In this document: positions 4,915 to 9,778 of the stretch, one piece after another
Numbering within the stretch: the first letter of the stretch is position 1
How the letters are laid out: every line of letters begins with the position of its first letter
IMG/VR virus record: IMGVR_UViG_2645727555_000014
Origin: a virus
Taxonomy: Duplodnaviria; Heunggongvirae; Uroviricota; Caudoviricetes
DNA: 23,702 nucleotides
Reading direction: 5' to 3' (one strand)
Program-made: the position numbers and the translations under genes
The notes under the pieces: generated by a model
Database searches by the model: none
Told to the model about the DNA's origin: nothing
The model's input: only the letters and a program-made list of their open reading frames with translations

Positions 4915-5682
4915 TCACCCCATAGATATCGAGGTTTCGGTAATAATACGTTTTGCGTCCAACTCCCATGCTGTGATCACGTCTGCAATCACACTTATCG
5001 GCGCTTGTGTGGCATAAATACGCTCTTCTCCAATTGGTGCTGAAACATCCGTAAAGCCGACTTCTTTGGAATCCTGTATCGAGCAAATCAGCGGGACCGG
5101 GACACGAACAAGGTGAGTGGTTGCTTCAAATTGTGTACCTGTCATCAGGCGAAGCCGTGCGCCCAGCGAATTACACATCAGACTCATGGTCGCTTTATCA
5201 GTTGCCATTAACGTAACGTCATACGTCAGAATGGCCTGGGTGTATTCCAGTTCTGCTAAAGGCATTCCGGTATCCGGTTCGCAAAAACTGGCTACTTTTT
5301 TGCGGTCAATCTGCTGATCATCGTTGATATAATTGATATCCATAGTGCGTGAGATATTGACCAGGGGGAGAGCATCCCGGTTAATGTTCTGGTTTTCAGG
5401 TTTTCTCCCTTGCCCGGCATTTGCGCGACGAACTGCTTTAAGAAACTCGATCGCATTGTCGAAACGGGCCACATAGACACGCTCTGCTGGTGGACGATTC
5501 AGGAATGACGCAAAGCGTTTTTCTTCCGGCGCGGGGGCCACCAGTAAGATATCAGAAAAAATGTTGCTGATTAGCGTCGCAAACGCGTTATCCACGTTTT
5601 CAAAGCCCGTGGTCTGGAATTTTCCTGTGCGTGAGGTTTGCCATTCACCTGTTCGCGCCAGGAGGGTTTTATTTGAAGTCAT
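4915..5682 (-). CDS. hypothetical phage protein (255 aa)
   Basis: ATG at 5682 overlaps the upstream stop (ATGA). No family recognised. Confidence 0.55.
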   Translation of the reverse strand: MTSNKTLLARTGEWQTSRTGKFQTTGFENVDNAFATLISNIFSDILLVAPAPEEKRFASFLNRPPAERVYVARFDNAIEFLKAVRRANAGQGRKPENQNINRDALPLVNISRTMDINYINDDQQIDRKKVASFCEPDTGMPLAELEYTQAILTYDVTLMATDKATMSLMCNSLGARLRLMTGTQFEATTHLVRVPVPLICSIQDSKEVGFTDVSAPIGEERIYATQAPISVIADVITAWELDAKRIITETSISMG

Positions 5683-6470
5683 TCGATCACTCCGTTTTGA
5701 GTCGTATCAAAATTCCTAGCAGGTATGCAGTAGTAAAGCGAACCAACATGCTGTGTGCCGTAGCTAAAAATACGGTGCACGTACCACCAGCGGCGCGCTA
5801 CGCCGTTTACCATCTCTTCATTCCATTCAAGAATTGAGCCGACGGGGACGTTATTTGCTGCAATACGCAGAATCAGAACATCATCGGTTAAGCCATCCTG
5901 CTCACCGTCTGCGTCAATCGCATGGAAAGAGTCACGCCCGTCAGGGTTATCCAGCACATAAACGATTTCAGGTTCCTGGTAAGTCAGTTCGCGTTGGTTG
6001 TTATCCAGTTCAGTGAATGACTCTTCTCCTGTTTCGTCGCTGACTACCCCATATGTGCCAACATCTGGTCGATATAAGAGAGCCTGAAACGCGTCTGGGC
6101 TGGATTCAATAATCAGCATCCAGTCTGCGCGGATTTGGTCGTTAAAGGCTTTATGCCCGTTATAGCGTGCTTTTAACTGTGGAGTCGGTTCTCTGCCAGC
6201 CAGGGAAGATGGAAGTATGGCTATATCTGATTCGCCAGCATCCGGAGTAAGGCCACCGTTGCTATCAGCAAAATTATCATGGCTATCAGCTTTGGCGGCG
6301 GGTTGCTCTTCCAGAATGCTGAATGAATCCGAACCTGTATTGCCATGTTCCGGCGCGCCTCCTGCATTCGCTTCAATCGGCGCTGGCGTTTCTCTCTGCG
6401 TGCTGTCATGTTCTGACTCCTTACTTGCCAGGTTTGCATCGTCAGCAAACCATTCGTCAAAACGGCCCAT
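5679..6470 (-). CDS. hypothetical acidic phage protein, first gene of the leftward operon
   Basis: ORF runs to 6482 with a TTG; start set at ATG 6470 preceded by AGGA. Low-complexity acidic central region. Stop overlaps the next start. Confidence 0.5.
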   Translation of the reverse strand: MGRFDEWFADDANLASKESEHDSTQRETPAPIEANAGGAPEHGNTGSDSFSILEEQPAAKADSHDNFADSNGGLTPDAGESDIAILPSSLAGREPTPQLKARYNGHKAFNDQIRADWMLIIESSPDAFQALLYRPDVGTYGVVSDETGEESFTELDNNQRELTYQEPEIVYVLDNPDGRDSFHAIDADGEQDGLTDDVLILRIAANNVPVGSILEWNEEMVNGVARRWWYVHRIFSYGTQHVGSLYYCIPARNFDTTQNGVIE

Positions 6471-6559
6471 AAGCATCCTCAAAGGTCGATCTGTCAGGTA
6501 TCGAAAGGAAGATTTTCTGGAGATTGTGATTTTGGATGAAGGAGGAGGAATTCATAAAA

Positions 6560-6587
6560 TGCACTTGCGCACAGTGCAACGGTGCGC
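6560..6587. promoter_or_regulatory. overlapping palindromes in the divergent promoter region upstream of higB (candidate HigA operator)
   Basis: TGCACT-tgcgcac-AGTGCA (6560-6578) and gcgcac/gtgcgc (6567-6572 / 6582-6587), located about 45-70 nt upstream of the higB start. Confidence 0.3.
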
Positions 6588-6632
6588 TATAGTTATGGCA
6601 TTCGGTAATCATCACGGAGGATCAAATGACTA

Positions 6633-6935
6633 ATGACCAAAAAAATTAACATAAAGGATTTCAGGGATGCGTGGCTTGATGATTTTTTTGAATTTTCAAC
6701 ACCACATAGAAAGATACCTCCTGATATTCATATGACATTGTCACGGAAGTTGGACATTATCAATGCCGCAACTACCTGTAAGGATTTAAGATCACCACCA
6801 GGTAATCGGTATGAGGAACTGTCAGGGAAGCTAAATGGCTATTCATCAGTAAGGGTGAATAAGCAATATAGGTTAATTTTTAAGTGGGTTAACGGAAAGG
6901 CCGAGGACTTGTATCTCGACCCTCACAAATACTAA
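6633..6935 (+). CDS. higB: type II toxin, HigB family (RelE/ParE superfamily, plasmid maintenance killer type)
   Basis: 100 aa, N-terminus MTKKINIKDFRDAWLDDFF and ...YRLIFKWVNGKAEDLYLDPHKY are typical of the HigB family. Followed by a HigA-type HTH antitoxin gene (toxin-first order typical of higBA). Confidence 0.8.
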   Translation: MTKKINIKDFRDAWLDDFFEFSTPHRKIPPDIHMTLSRKLDIINAATTCKDLRSPPGNRYEELSGKLNGYSSVRVNKQYRLIFKWVNGKAEDLYLDPHKY

Positions 6936-7005
6936 AACAGATACCCGGTTACGGACCGGGTTCTGACCAGAGTCCACTTAATACGCACGCTAGTAAGGGC
7001 AAAAA

Positions 7006-7344
7006 ATGAAACAGGCAACCAGAAAACCGACGACCGTAGGTGATATCCTGCTGTACGAATACCTGGAGCCGTTAGAGCTGAAGATCAACGAGTTGGCAGA
7101 AATACTTCATGTTCATCGTAACACCGTAAGTGCTCTTGTTAATAATAATCGTAAGCTAACGATGGATATGGCATATCGCCTGGCAAAAGCATTCGATACT
7201 TCTGTAGATTTTTGGATTAATCTTCAGACCGCAGTAGACCTGTGGGAAGTCGAAAATGATATGCGCGTTCAGGAAGAGTTAAGTCGTATCAATACTGCTG
7301 AAAAATTTATTTCTCAGCGGAACCTGAATAAAAAAGCAGCCTGA
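7006..7344 (+). CDS. higA: type II antitoxin HigA (XRE-type HTH)
   Basis: 112 aa; TVGDILLYEYLEPLELKINELAEILHVHRNTVSALVNNNRKLTMDMAYRLAKAFDTSVDFWINLQTAVDLW fits the HigA addiction-module antidote family pattern. AAGGG SD upstream. Confidence 0.85.
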   Translation: MKQATRKPTTVGDILLYEYLEPLELKINELAEILHVHRNTVSALVNNNRKLTMDMAYRLAKAFDTSVDFWINLQTAVDLWEVENDMRVQEELSRINTAEKFISQRNLNKKAA

Positions 7345-7365
7345 TATAGTAAAACACATACAAAA

Positions 7366-7394
7366 AGCCCACTTAGCAAGTGGGCTTTCCTTTG
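7366..7394 (+). terminator. hairpin after higA (terminator or attenuator)
   Basis: Stem agcccact (7366-7373), loop tagca, stem agtgggct (7379-7386), then ttcctttg. The next start codon (7401) follows directly. Confidence 0.5.
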
Positions 7395-7400
7395 TAATTA

Positions 7401-7760
7401 ATGAACATTAAACCTATCCGTACAGAACAAGATTATGAGGCCGCACTGCGTGCGGTCGAACCGATGTTCGATAACGAACCGGAAATGAATACTCCGGAAG
7501 GTGATTTCTTTGAGGTTATGAGTCTTCTCATTGAGGAGTACGAGAAAAAACATTACCCAATTGAGCCACCATCACCTATTGAGGCCATTAAATTCCGTAT
7601 GGAACAGCAAGGGCTGACCGTGAAGGATCTGGAACCGGCGATTGGTAAGTCAAATCGTGTTTACGAAGTGCTAAATGGGACACGAAATTTGACGTTACCT
7701 ATGATTCGCCGTTTACATTCCCAGCTTGGCATTCCTCTTGAAAGCTTGGTTGGTATTTGA
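7401..7760 (+). CDS. HTH DNA-binding protein resembling E. coli K-12 HigA (YgjM)-type antitoxins; no cognate toxin adjacent
   Basis: 119 aa. IRTEQDYEAALRAVEPMF and C-terminal GLTVKDLEPAIGKSNRVYEVLNGTRNLTLPMIRRLHSQLGIPLESL resemble the K-12 HigA (YgjM) HTH region as I recall it. No SD; an in-frame TAA sits just upstream at 7395-7397. Confidence 0.65.
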   Translation: MNIKPIRTEQDYEAALRAVEPMFDNEPEMNTPEGDFFEVMSLLIEEYEKKHYPIEPPSPIEAIKFRMEQQGLTVKDLEPAIGKSNRVYEVLNGTRNLTLPMIRRLHSQLGIPLESLVGI

Positions 7761-7822
7761 GTTTGGTGGTCTGGATGACCGCTATTTTCATAAAATAGAT
7801 ATTAGAAATCACGGTAGTTTAT

Positions 7823-8551
7823 ATGAATACAGATTCATCAACAGAAAAATTGACTGAAAATGATCTAATCAAAGTATCTTTTGGAGATGCCATAAAAGAC
7901 AAGCTTTTTAATAAAGTGTTTGCATATATATTAATTTCTTTTCTAATTATTAATTGGAAAGATATACTAATATTGATGAAGTCAAAGGATGATATCCTAT
8001 ATACTTTATCTGTAACATTTGTTGGAGGTAAGATTCCTCTAGTTTATGAAGGCGTTTTGTCTCCTTGGCTTTATCATTTTTGCTTGCCATTTATTTTTGG
8101 AATTATTGCATCAATTGCAGCTCCGATTGTCACTCTTTGCGTATCAAAGCTAACAAGTAAAATATATACAGAGATAAGGTATTTGGATGCCGACATGGAT
8201 CAAAATAAAAGAAAGGCGTTGCAAATAAAAGAGACTGAAATAATAAAAAGTATTAATGATACACAATTCAACAAAAGAATTATGGATGAAAATAAAAATG
8301 AACTTGAGAGATTGCTTAGGCAGCAAAAAGAGATTATGGCGGCAATAAAGTTATTATATGATGATGTTGGAGTTATCATTGAGCTTTTTAAAAGTAGAGG
8401 GGTTGGTATTGACTCCCCAGAAAAGTTATATGATTTTGTAATGGCAATAAAGAAGACTTCGCTTTATAATGGCGATCATGATTTTAATAAATTGGTTGCT
8501 GATATTTCAAATTTATTTGATAAAACGGAAATTGATTTTTCAAAAAGATGA
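7823..8551 (+). CDS. hypothetical membrane protein: two predicted TM helices followed by a long charged coiled-coil-like C-terminal region
   Basis: 242 aa; hydrophobic segments VFAYILISFLIINW and LYHFCLPFIFGIIASIAAPIVTLCV, then a K/E/D-rich region (...KRKALQIKETEIIKSINDTQFNKRIMDENKNELERLLRQQKEIMAAIKLL...). Gene is visibly AT-rich relative to flanks. No family recognised. Confidence 0.65.
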   Translation: MNTDSSTEKLTENDLIKVSFGDAIKDKLFNKVFAYILISFLIINWKDILILMKSKDDILYTLSVTFVGGKIPLVYEGVLSPWLYHFCLPFIFGIIASIAAPIVTLCVSKLTSKIYTEIRYLDADMDQNKRKALQIKETEIIKSINDTQFNKRIMDENKNELERLLRQQKEIMAAIKLLYDDVGVIIELFKSRGVGIDSPEKLYDFVMAIKKTSLYNGDHDFNKLVADISNLFDKTEIDFSKR

Positions 8552-8552
8552 A

Positions 8553-8575
8553 AGCCTAGCCTAGGCAGCTAGGCT
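8553..8575. terminator. hairpin between convergent genes (probable terminator for the minus-strand gene)
   Basis: 8-bp stem agcctagc / gctaggct with a 7-nt loop. On the minus strand it is followed by TTCATCTTTTTG. Confidence 0.45.
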
Positions 8576-8584
8576 ATGTGTGGT

Positions 8585-9778
8585 TTATGCTTTTTTTACA
8601 TACTCCATGAACATTTTTTCAGCTTGTGCTGGTGGTGTTCCAGCCATGACAAGCGCATCAATGAACGCCTGCTTCTTCAGTGCGAACTGATCGGCAAGGC
8701 GTTGCTGAAGCTCCTTGTTTTTCTGTTTCTCACGTTGCAAGGCCGCTTCTTTTGCTGCCGCCCGTCTTTTCTGTGCGTCTGACAACTTTCTGGCCTTGGT
8801 CAATTGGTCACGTAGTTTGTCGATCTTGCCGTTGTCCTTTGCCAGTTTTGTACTTAAAGCGGCCTGGCGCTTCTGATAGAGCCTCCATTCGCGCTTGGCA
8901 GCGTCAACGTTTGTTTTACTGTTGCGATTGCGATTAAACTCCCTCTCGTCTTCTTTTGAGAAGTGTTTGGTTGTACGGCGGCGATCGTCACCAAATGCAA
9001 TTTGCGTTGCGGCCTTTTGTAACGCACGAGCAATACTCATTTGCCAACTAGCGGACTGTAACCGCGTCATTGAGTGGATCACGTGTTTACAGGCGACGCC
9101 TTGTAGCTTAGGGTTACGAACTTTTGGATAGGCGTATTCTTTTGGCGGGGTCAGGGCAAAGTTACCCGCAGTAGCGATGTAACGATACCAGTATTGATGA
9201 CGACCACAGTCACAATCGAAAGACACCCGCCCGGCGCACAGTGATTTAGTGATTTTCAGAGCTGATTTATCGTCTTCTGCGATGTCATCGACCATCTGAT
9301 CCCATTCTTCAAAGCGTATCCGGACGATATGGTGCTGGTGGACGGATATATCCGATGCTTCTACGCGGATATTAATCACGTTGTGGCGAAGAGATACGGG
9401 TGTAGCTCTTTTGATACCAGATCCGTCATCCACGGCGTTATTTGCACGCTTAATATCGATTGCCTGGCTGGATGCCACCAGCTGGGCGTATGTGATGCCA
9501 GCCGTCTTGCTGTCATATTTTTCGCGTGTTTTACTCCGTAGCTTTTCGAAACCTTTCAGGTCGTCTCGCGTGAAGAACGTGCCGCCTTTTTTCTTCCCTA
9601 ACTTGAGAATATCTTCGGCGGATTTGTTCCTCAGTCTACCTGGCGTCAGCGTCCGGTGAGCTTGTCGGCGCTTACGGGTTTGTTCTTTCCTGATAAGGTC
9701 GAATAAACGCGTGAAGTCCTTAGAGGACAGGCCGTCAGTGATATAGCGCCCGTCCTGGTTTTTCAGGAAATCAGGCAT
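8585..9778 (-). CDS. hypothetical phage protein with SWIM-like zinc-finger signature and Lys/Arg-rich coiled-coil C-terminus
   Basis: 397 aa. FDCDCGRHQYWYRYI...VACKHVIHS gives a C-x-C-x(n)-C-x-H spacing. C-terminal ~100 aa strongly basic and heptad-like (KREWRLYQKRQAALSTKLAKDNGKIDKLRDQLTKARKLSDAQKRRAAAKEAALQREKQKNKELQQRL). Confidence 0.55.
   Translation of the reverse strand: MPDFLKNQDGRYITDGLSSKDFTRLFDLIRKEQTRKRRQAHRTLTPGRLRNKSAEDILKLGKKKGGTFFTRDDLKGFEKLRSKTREKYDSKTAGITYAQLVASSQAIDIKRANNAVDDGSGIKRATPVSLRHNVINIRVEASDISVHQHHIVRIRFEEWDQMVDDIAEDDKSALKITKSLCAGRVSFDCDCGRHQYWYRYIATAGNFALTPPKEYAYPKVRNPKLQGVACKHVIHSMTRLQSASWQMSIARALQKAATQIAFGDDRRRTTKHFSKEDEREFNRNRNSKTNVDAAKREWRLYQKRQAALSTKLAKDNGKIDKLRDQLTKARKLSDAQKRRAAAKEAALQREKQKNKELQQRLADQFALKKQAFIDALVMAGTPPAQAEKMFMEYVKKA

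Follow-up and report, generated by a model that had tools for sequence, protein, structure and literature searches.

This study concerns a toxin-antitoxin (TA) locus in a 23,702-nt stretch of DNA from a tailed phage (Caudoviricetes; IMG/VR record IMGVR_UViG_2645727555_000014), which is referred to below, at its full length, as the window. Three genes follow one another on its plus strand, on which all other features described here also lie, and their open reading frames (ORFs) were recovered exactly as delimited in an earlier sequence-only reading of this DNA (the original prediction): higB1 (6633-6935), higA1 (7006-7344) and an orphan antitoxin gene, higA2 (7401-7760), whose PF09907 partner toxin in relatives is called higB2. 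Our reading is that one TA module has here overwritten another and that higA2 is probably, though by no means certainly, a relic of the overwritten module, most likely weakly expressed and on its way out. This reading starts from four sets of observations, namely the homology of the locus to its relatives, the breakpoints at which that homology stops and resumes, the loss of expression signals in front of higA2 and the distribution of states among the relatives.

The 3 kb around the three genes are 99.2% identical to Escherichia phage D6 (MF356679), a P1-like plasmid prophage with a genome of 91 kb; identity to four plasmids of approximately 90 kb from E. coli and Salmonella is 99.1-99.5%. In the D6 record the genes are orf70, orf71 and orf72, found on the opposite strand between homologues of the P1 tail genes 7 and 25. 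L-labels (L003, L013, L014, L018, L019, L024 and others) denote the individual relative loci that were compared with the window.

States, breakpoints and expression signals of the locus

The census of states covered the 112 PLSDB records that match positions 7345-7822. In 21 of these the higB2-higA2 operon is intact and the match begins at the toxin stop codon, 18 have the arrangement of the window, with higBA1, its terminator and an orphan of full length, and in about 73 the match ends at approximately codon 60 of the orphan, where a different downstream sequence takes over and leaves higBA1 followed by an ORF of 66 codons. This stub, which lacks the helix-turn-helix (HTH) domain of HigA2 and retains the whole N-terminal two-helix domain, is flagged as a pseudogene by PGAP and has a 66-residue family of its own in PHROGs. 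The higBA1-bearing forms together account for approximately 81% of the 112 records.

Pairwise blastn comparison with two loci in the intact state (L013 and L014) places the breakpoints at 6532/6533 and 7393/7394, homology stopping at 6532 and resuming at 7394, and the 861 bp between them (6533-7393) stand in place of 383 bp, comprising promoter and higB2, in the sister plasmids. The right-hand recombination junction (7394-7400), delimited by comparing the sequences upstream of higA2 in six orphan and nine toxin-linked loci, lies no more than 7 nt from the higA2 start codon. It is identical in all six orphan loci examined save for a single substitution in L018, a plasmid from a different replicon cluster with a tail gene that is 23% divergent, and a junction common to all six, including so distant a relative, points to a single event that was later spread by recombination.

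We propose that a higB2-higA2 operon, encoding a PF09907 toxin and a two-domain HigA, once occupied, as a moron, the interval between the homologues of P1 tail genes 7 and 25 in D6-like phage-plasmids, and that one recombination event swapped its promoter, operators and toxin gene (the 383 bp) for a self-contained higBA1 cassette (the 861 bp) of the other HigBA lineage. The incoming cassette would have brought its own promoter/operator and terminator, and as the break came 7 nt or less from the start codon of higA2, the antitoxin gene would have survived intact, to be cut to the 66-codon stub in most relatives when the orf73 cassette behind it was later exchanged. The working addiction module at the site would now be higBA1, alongside phd-doc elsewhere in D6. 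That the antitoxin gene rather than the toxin gene survived would follow from the logic of addiction, under which loss of a toxin gene is harmless but loss of an antitoxin gene while the toxin protein persists is not, and by the same logic orphan antitoxins are to be expected as fossils of TA turnover.

The signals of the intact operon are missing in front of the orphan. In intact modules the Shine-Dalgarno (SD) sequence of the antitoxin gene (GGAG) is found inside the last codons of higB2, and in the window those bases have been replaced: the ATG at 7401 is preceded by cctttgtaatta, where the toxin-linked copies have ctGGAGtaa, and no SD is present. The original prediction had remarked on this absence and on a hairpin ahead of the second HTH gene, and both remarks hold, the hairpin (7364-7388) being terminator-like. 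Its sequence, GCCCACTT-AGCA-AAGTGGGC, is followed by an interrupted T-tract (7364-7393 in all), was matched by a terminator scan on both strands, ends the higBA1 cassette and finishes 12 nt before the orphan ATG; the 86-nt stretch 7335-7420 has a predicted folding energy of -17.9 kcal/mol (z = -2.6). An Rfam scan of 6400-8700 returned nothing above the gathering score, the sub-threshold matches overlapping this same hairpin. A further terminator-like hairpin at 7764-7784, found by the terminator scan, is the native one of the former higBA2 operon, kept behind the orphan: homology with L014, in which higBA2 is present and orf73 is not, extends to 7782, and the counterpart of the hairpin in L013 has a stronger stem and a stronger T-run.

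The native higBA2 promoter in L013, a good sigma-70 promoter (TTTACA, 17 nt, TATACT), is overlapped by GTCCCAT-NN-TGGGAC palindromes, exact copies of which were found upstream of all four independent intact higB2-higA2 modules examined (2118-2201 in L013, approximately 2666 in L007, approximately 2667 in L003, and 2638 and 2668 in L012). The HigA of E. coli K-12 binds palindromes in its own promoter (PMC11980606), and the palindromes described here are probably the operators of HigA2. Searches of the window and of the 91-kb D6 genome found no copy with two or fewer mismatches, and in neither does higA2 have own-promoter palindromes of the kind through which autoregulation would act. It would appear that higA2 is now transcribed solely by read-through of the 7364-7388 terminator and translated without an SD, and that no DNA target is left for HigA2 in the phage genome.

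We read higA2 as a relic because of a trend in its segregating sites and because it is truncated in approximately two thirds of the relatives. The orphan alleles have 8 nonsynonymous and 32 synonymous segregating sites and the toxin-linked alleles 1 and 26, respectively (Fisher p = 0.07), a trend that leans toward relaxed constraint on the orphans. Four points weigh against a gene in decay: this signal is not significant; all seven full-length orphans examined (of 18 listed) have an intact reading frame, with pairwise ratios of nonsynonymous to synonymous substitution rates (dN/dS) of 0.02-0.13; the U-tract of the 7364-7388 terminator is interrupted, making it possible for read-through to be substantial; and AU-rich leaders can support SD-independent initiation. 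Low dN/dS as proof of selection on the orphan was considered and abandoned, as the alleles are recombinant imports. Divergence of higA2 among the orphans is 4-8%, compared with 0.1-1% for the adjoining higBA1 cassette, and the orphan protein of L019 is identical to the toxin-linked allele WP_021551809.1 of L014, which together indicate that most of the diversity was imported by recombination with toxin-linked alleles. The HigA2 of the window differs at 3-4 residues from the toxin-linked alleles of sister plasmids.

Identity of the orphan antitoxin and of the resident pair

HigA2 (119 residues) consists of an N-terminal two-helix domain (approximately residues 9-51) and a C-terminal XRE HTH domain (59-116). 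Pfam detects solely HTH_3 (residues 63-115), no match was obtained in NCBIfam, and the PHROGs family to which the protein belongs is called 'transcriptional regulator'. A phmmer search against solved structures gave significant matches only to HigA of E. coli K-12 and Shigella (5IFG_B and 5YCL_A, E 7e-7), residues 6-112 aligning with 24-132 of 5IFG_B and both domains being covered. The AlphaFold (AF2) model (pLDDT 92) places helices at 9-22, 32-51 and 59-116, corresponding to a pair of helices at the N-terminus and, after a linker, an HTH domain of five helices, and when it was used for a fold search of the PDB only HigA chains (6KML_B, 6KMQ_B, 6JQ4 and 5YCL) matched over the full length, at approximately 120 columns; these top four comprise three chains from HigBA complexes and one free K-12 HigA, and all other matches cover only the 60-residue HTH. 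Homologues number in the thousands (best E 1e-66; the top 120 are 73-92% identical), and the genes at the locus are real rather than chance ORFs.

In intact modules a 100-residue PF09907 HigB gene ends 2-5 nt upstream of the higA2 orthologue (3-5 nt in Kluyvera, Citrobacter and the Salmonella prophage). Orthologues with 82-100% identity lie directly downstream of such a gene at 10 loci or more, in Kluyvera, in Citrobacter, in a Salmonella lambdoid prophage, in an O26 prophage of Shiga toxin-producing E. coli (STEC) and in six D6-like or P1-like plasmids; in some otherwise identical contigs from Kluyvera, Citrobacter and Salmonella no toxin gene is called upstream of the orthologue. Neither in the window nor in D6 is higA2 found directly downstream of a PF09907 HigB gene, and when three HigB2 toxins served as tblastn queries against the window and the complete 91-kb D6 genome, chance-level matches only (E >= 0.22) were obtained, with no gene or fragment of higB2.

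The original prediction had taken 7401-7760 for a different HigA, of the K-12 (YgjM) type, that lacks its cognate toxin and may be an orphan antitoxin, and had suggested that the profiles of the two HTH proteins be compared. Its assignments proved correct: the comparison separates two HigA lineages (TIGR02607/YbaQ and K-12/YgjM), the sequence and fold matches are to HigA chains and the toxin is absent, and in Kluyvera, Citrobacter, Salmonella, STEC prophages and sister D6-like plasmids orthologues 82-92% identical to the orphan are directly preceded by a PF09907 HigB gene. Rather than placing the gene outside the antitoxins, the searches link it to HigA antitoxins and, through its orthologues, to toxins. 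Judged by sequence, HigA2 belongs to the K-12-type HigA family, the locus in the window is not a complete module of that type, and 7401-7760 is demonstrated to be an orphan antitoxin.

Compared with the E. coli K-12 pair HigB-HigA (YgjN-YgjM; 5IFG, 6KML, 6JQ4), HigA2 has the same two-domain build and aligns end to end with its best fold matches at 28-30% identity, and its orthologues likewise stand just downstream of a PF09907 toxin gene, behind a palindrome-bearing promoter. It differs in that the window is without a toxin, promoter, operators or SD of this type, in the length of the protein (119 vs 138 residues) and in falling into a separate subfamily that occurs in prophages and plasmids.

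Modules of the higB2-higA2 type recur as morons in temperate phages. They are found between the minor tail and tape-measure genes of Salmonella lambdoid prophages (L007-L010), in the early/immunity region of an E. coli O26 STEC prophage (L027), near dicB and ydaT, and adjoining c1 and integrase on a P1-like phage-plasmid (L023).

A relationship to PD-lambda-2, an abortive-infection defence against lambda-vir in which component B carries a peptidase domain and a third gene is required (PMC9519451), was also considered. In PADLOC the HigB2 of sister plasmids matches PD-Lambda-2_A (E 1e-41) and HigA2 matches positions 1-119 of the 402-position PD-Lambda-2_B profile (E 5e-44). The system is defined by a HigB-like A, a HigA-like HTH fused to a peptidase (B) and a P4-antitoxin-like C, and membership of the window locus was rejected: although HigB2 resembles component A and HigA2 the N-terminus of component B, the window lacks an A gene, a C gene and any peptidase domain, and the B profile is matched only at its HigA-like N-terminus. 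As far as these profile matches go, HigBA2 and PD-lambda-2 stand in a relation of kinship, not membership.

The resident pair lies on the 861-bp higBA1 cassette (6533-7393), delimited by the blastn comparison described above and comprising promoter/operator, higB1, spacer, higA1 and terminator. Its GC content is 0.41 vs 0.46 for the window, and its divergence among carriers is only 0.1-1.0%, except in the distant lineage L018 (approximately 6.6%). The product of higB1 (100 residues) is a RelE-fold toxin of the PF05015 HigB-like family (GraT/Rts1-HigB type), in line with the HigB family originally predicted: it matches HigB-like_toxin at E 4e-35 over profile positions 1-91 of 91 (120.5 bits vs a cut-off of 27) and phrog_3066, 'toxin of TA system', at E 4e-37, its closest solved relative is P. 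putida GraT (6F8S_B, E 3e-14), and it is 80% identical to the E. coli chromosomal toxin encoded upstream of ybaQ. The neighbouring higA1 encodes a single-domain YbaQ-like HigA of 112 residues, recognised from the outset as its cognate antitoxin, which matches TIGR02607 antidote_HigA at E 8e-30 (102.5 bits vs a cut-off of 47.7) and has E. coli YbaQ as its best solved relative (2EBY, E 1e-53); it shares 75% global identity with the YbaQ encoded in a chromosomal toxin-ybaQ operon. Positions 6633-7344 are accordingly a toxin-first bicistron in which both family profiles of a HigB-like/HigA type II TA system are matched in full length.

A putative higBA1 promoter (6560-6593; -35-like TTGCGC at 6565-6570, -10-like TATAGT at 6588-6593) is overlapped by an imperfect palindrome, TGCACTTGCGCACAGTGCA, at 6560-6578. 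The imperfect palindrome TGCACTTGCGCACAGTGC, with the same 17-nt spacing to a -10-like hexamer, is also found upstream of the E. coli chromosomal toxin-ybaQ operon (L024), and on this ground we infer a promoter/operator at 6560-6593; a consensus promoter scan did not include this site among its hits. In the spacer between higB1 and higA1, which at 70 nt vs 35 nt in the chromosomal homologue is unusually long, as the original prediction had it, the hairpin noted there at 6943-6961 was likewise recovered. It has a 7-bp G+C-rich stem that can be extended to 6938-6965, the 86-nt stretch 6925-7010 around it has a predicted folding energy of -20.8 kcal/mol (z = -2.4), and in the divergent plasmid L018, whose loop differs, a compensatory double change from T-A to C-G preserves the stem. 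No U-tract follows the stem on the plus strand, and a terminator is therefore less likely than an element of RNA processing or stability that would set the ratio of toxin to antitoxin; on the minus strand the stem scored as terminator-like, yet no minus-strand gene ends there.

By these features higBA1 looks like a normal, self-contained module, and post-segregational killing has been assumed in the literature for the higA-higB of D6-like elements (PMC6799933). It has in common with the Rts1/GraTA/YbaQ lineage (PF05015 and TIGR02607) the toxin-first order, the full-length profile matches and a promoter palindrome shared with the toxin-ybaQ operon, and it differs in the 70-nt spacer with its conserved stem-loop and in being carried, as an 861-bp cassette complete in itself, by a phage-plasmid. 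With DNA identity of only approximately 70%, the toxin-ybaQ loci of E. coli chromosomes were rejected as direct donor of the cassette. Given the 75% and 80% identities of HigA1 and HigB1 to the chromosomal pair, host YbaQ might blunt the plasmid HigB1. The chromosomal ybaQ is itself mostly an orphan of the higBA1 type: approximately 4,800 E. coli chromosomes match, most of them only in the antitoxin part, and a few hundred retain a RelE/ParE toxin gene upstream of ybaQ.

Other roles considered for the orphan

The alternative that survives best, unlikely though we consider it, is that the orphan has been retained for a role in trans. HigA2 produced at a low level would neutralise the HigB2 of incompatible sister phage-plasmids or of lambdoid prophages, allowing the higBA1 plasmid to displace these rivals or to co-exist with them without suffering arrest by the toxin or abortive infection, and the rivals would have no antidote to its own HigB1. 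Toxin-linked alleles encode the same protein as the orphan, or nearly the same, and the orphan protein, if made, should bind and neutralise HigB2. Suitable targets are found in the same host range: 21 of the 112 sister plasmids carry HigB2, most with the same replicon cluster, and higBA2 is present in approximately 150 of 5,426 complete E. coli genomes, mostly of STEC type. A single chromosomal locus was examined (O26 RM10386); its module belongs to the early region of a lambdoid prophage and encodes a HigB2 that is 90% identical to the plasmid toxin and a HigA2 that is 92% identical to the orphan. The family overlap with PD-lambda-2, through HigB2 with component A and HigA2 with the N-terminus of component B, is consistent with such a role, as is the present share of the higBA1-bearing forms among the records. 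Even the stub keeps the whole N-terminal two-helix domain, which, from the K-12 HigBA structures, we take to be the HigB-binding part of K-12 HigA.

Precedents exist for activity of this kind. The chromosomal ccd of Erwinia chrysanthemi acts against the ccd of F as an anti-addiction module. Orphan antitoxins also serve phages in counter-defence, which has been shown for orphan DarG-like antitoxins in T4-like phages (PMC11825919), and a comparable role has been put forward for an orphan hipB located next to a higA/relE pair on a plasmid (PMC11541004). The likeness to these systems lies in an antitoxin gene without its toxin, carried on a mobile element beside an unrelated complete TA pair, with candidate target toxins present in competing elements of the same hosts; the differences are that the origin of higA2 can be traced base by base to the replacement of a toxin gene, that its expression signals have been lost and that it is truncated in most relatives. 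A gene without its own promoter, 12 nt behind a terminator and with its SD lost, which is reduced to a stub in about two thirds of the relatives and shows a trend toward extra amino-acid changes when orphaned, argues against a role in trans.

In its stronger form, that HigA2 and perhaps also the 66-residue stub are a retained weapon in competition between mobile elements, the idea is more doubtful still. If it were true, plasmids that have undergone the swap would evict incompatible higBA2 siblings, enter STEC lysogens that carry HigBA2 or PD-lambda-2-like modules and addict their hosts through a toxin that rivals cannot neutralise, and this would explain the dominance of higBA1.

The original prediction had also suggested that the second HTH protein might regulate the membrane gene downstream, a proposal that did not stand. 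This gene, orf73 (7823-8551), belongs to an AT-rich variable cassette (7783-8589; GC 0.30 vs 0.46 for the window) that is mentioned here only as context and lies outside the TA relic. Its product (242 residues) falls into phrog_8191, of unknown function, with no match in Pfam or PADLOC, and tblastn against phages finds D6 itself only. Among D6-like plasmids that are otherwise 95-99% identical the alleles range from 242 to 275 residues with 35-80% amino-acid identity, and L014 and L019 lack the gene altogether; it has the look of a moron with rapid turnover, perhaps one that acts in exclusion or defence. Regulation of this membrane/coiled-coil gene by HigA2 is suggested by their adjacency on the same strand, 62 nt apart, and by a promoter-like site (7677-7705; GGGACA, 17 nt, TATGAT) inside the 3' end of higA2, the count of such sites in the region being no higher than in shuffled sequence. 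We regard it as highly improbable, however, given that orf73 alleles sit behind the HTH-less stub in approximately 73 plasmids, that higA2 is present without orf73 in L014 and L019, that higA2 orthologues elsewhere have unrelated downstream genes, that a terminator-like hairpin separates the two genes and that the higBA2-type operator palindrome is absent from the window and D6.

Still less credible is a tripartite system in which HigA2 would be a second antitoxin or co-regulator for HigB1. The three genes are close together in the same orientation and read-through from the higBA1 promoter is the sole evident route to higA2 expression, but the partner of HigA2 in every intact context is PF09907, a different Pfam family from HigB1 (PF05015), pairs of the higBA1 type stand alone on E. 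coli chromosomes, and most relatives have only a stub of higA2. This arrangement was rejected on account of the differing toxin families, the terminator that intervenes between higA1 and higA2 and the junction there, which is a recombination scar. Least of all can we credit an ordinary XRE-family repressor outside TA biology, for which the HTH_3-only Pfam result, the empty NCBIfam search and the PHROGs label would speak, and which is refuted by the strict linkage of higA2 orthologues to PF09907 toxins and contradicted by the match of the full-length protein, in sequence and in fold, to HigA of K-12 and Shigella.

Prior annotation and significance

The bare observation of two HigA-family genes at this site is not new, orf71 and orf72 both being labelled 'HigA family addiction module anti-toxin' in the GenBank record of D6, in which the identity of orf72 is thus already given. 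Orphan antitoxins are moreover abundant in E. coli (PMC10790755), and with orf72 already annotated the surprise is small. The present analysis contributes an account, at base resolution, of how one TA module overwrote another, every intermediate of which still exists, together with a concrete and testable hypothesis of anti-addiction. On a sister plasmid (L015, NZ_CP058619.1) a further gene annotated 'HigA family addiction module antitoxin' is found a few kb downstream, at 5403-5467, and D6-like plasmids may have more than one TA hot spot.

The locus is a clear but ordinary case of TA turnover on a mobile element. It offers a finely resolved natural instance of a phage-plasmid on which one TA module has overwritten another; every stage (the intact old module, the new module with an orphan antitoxin, and the new module with a stub) survives in sequenced relatives, and the case illustrates why orphan antitoxins are the usual debris of such turnover. 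Annotators should not take the presence of two HigA genes here as the sign of a three-component system. Should the orphan or the stub prove active in trans, anti-addiction and anti-abortive-infection functions of phage-plasmids could be studied at this locus in a simple way, natural isogenic variants being already available.

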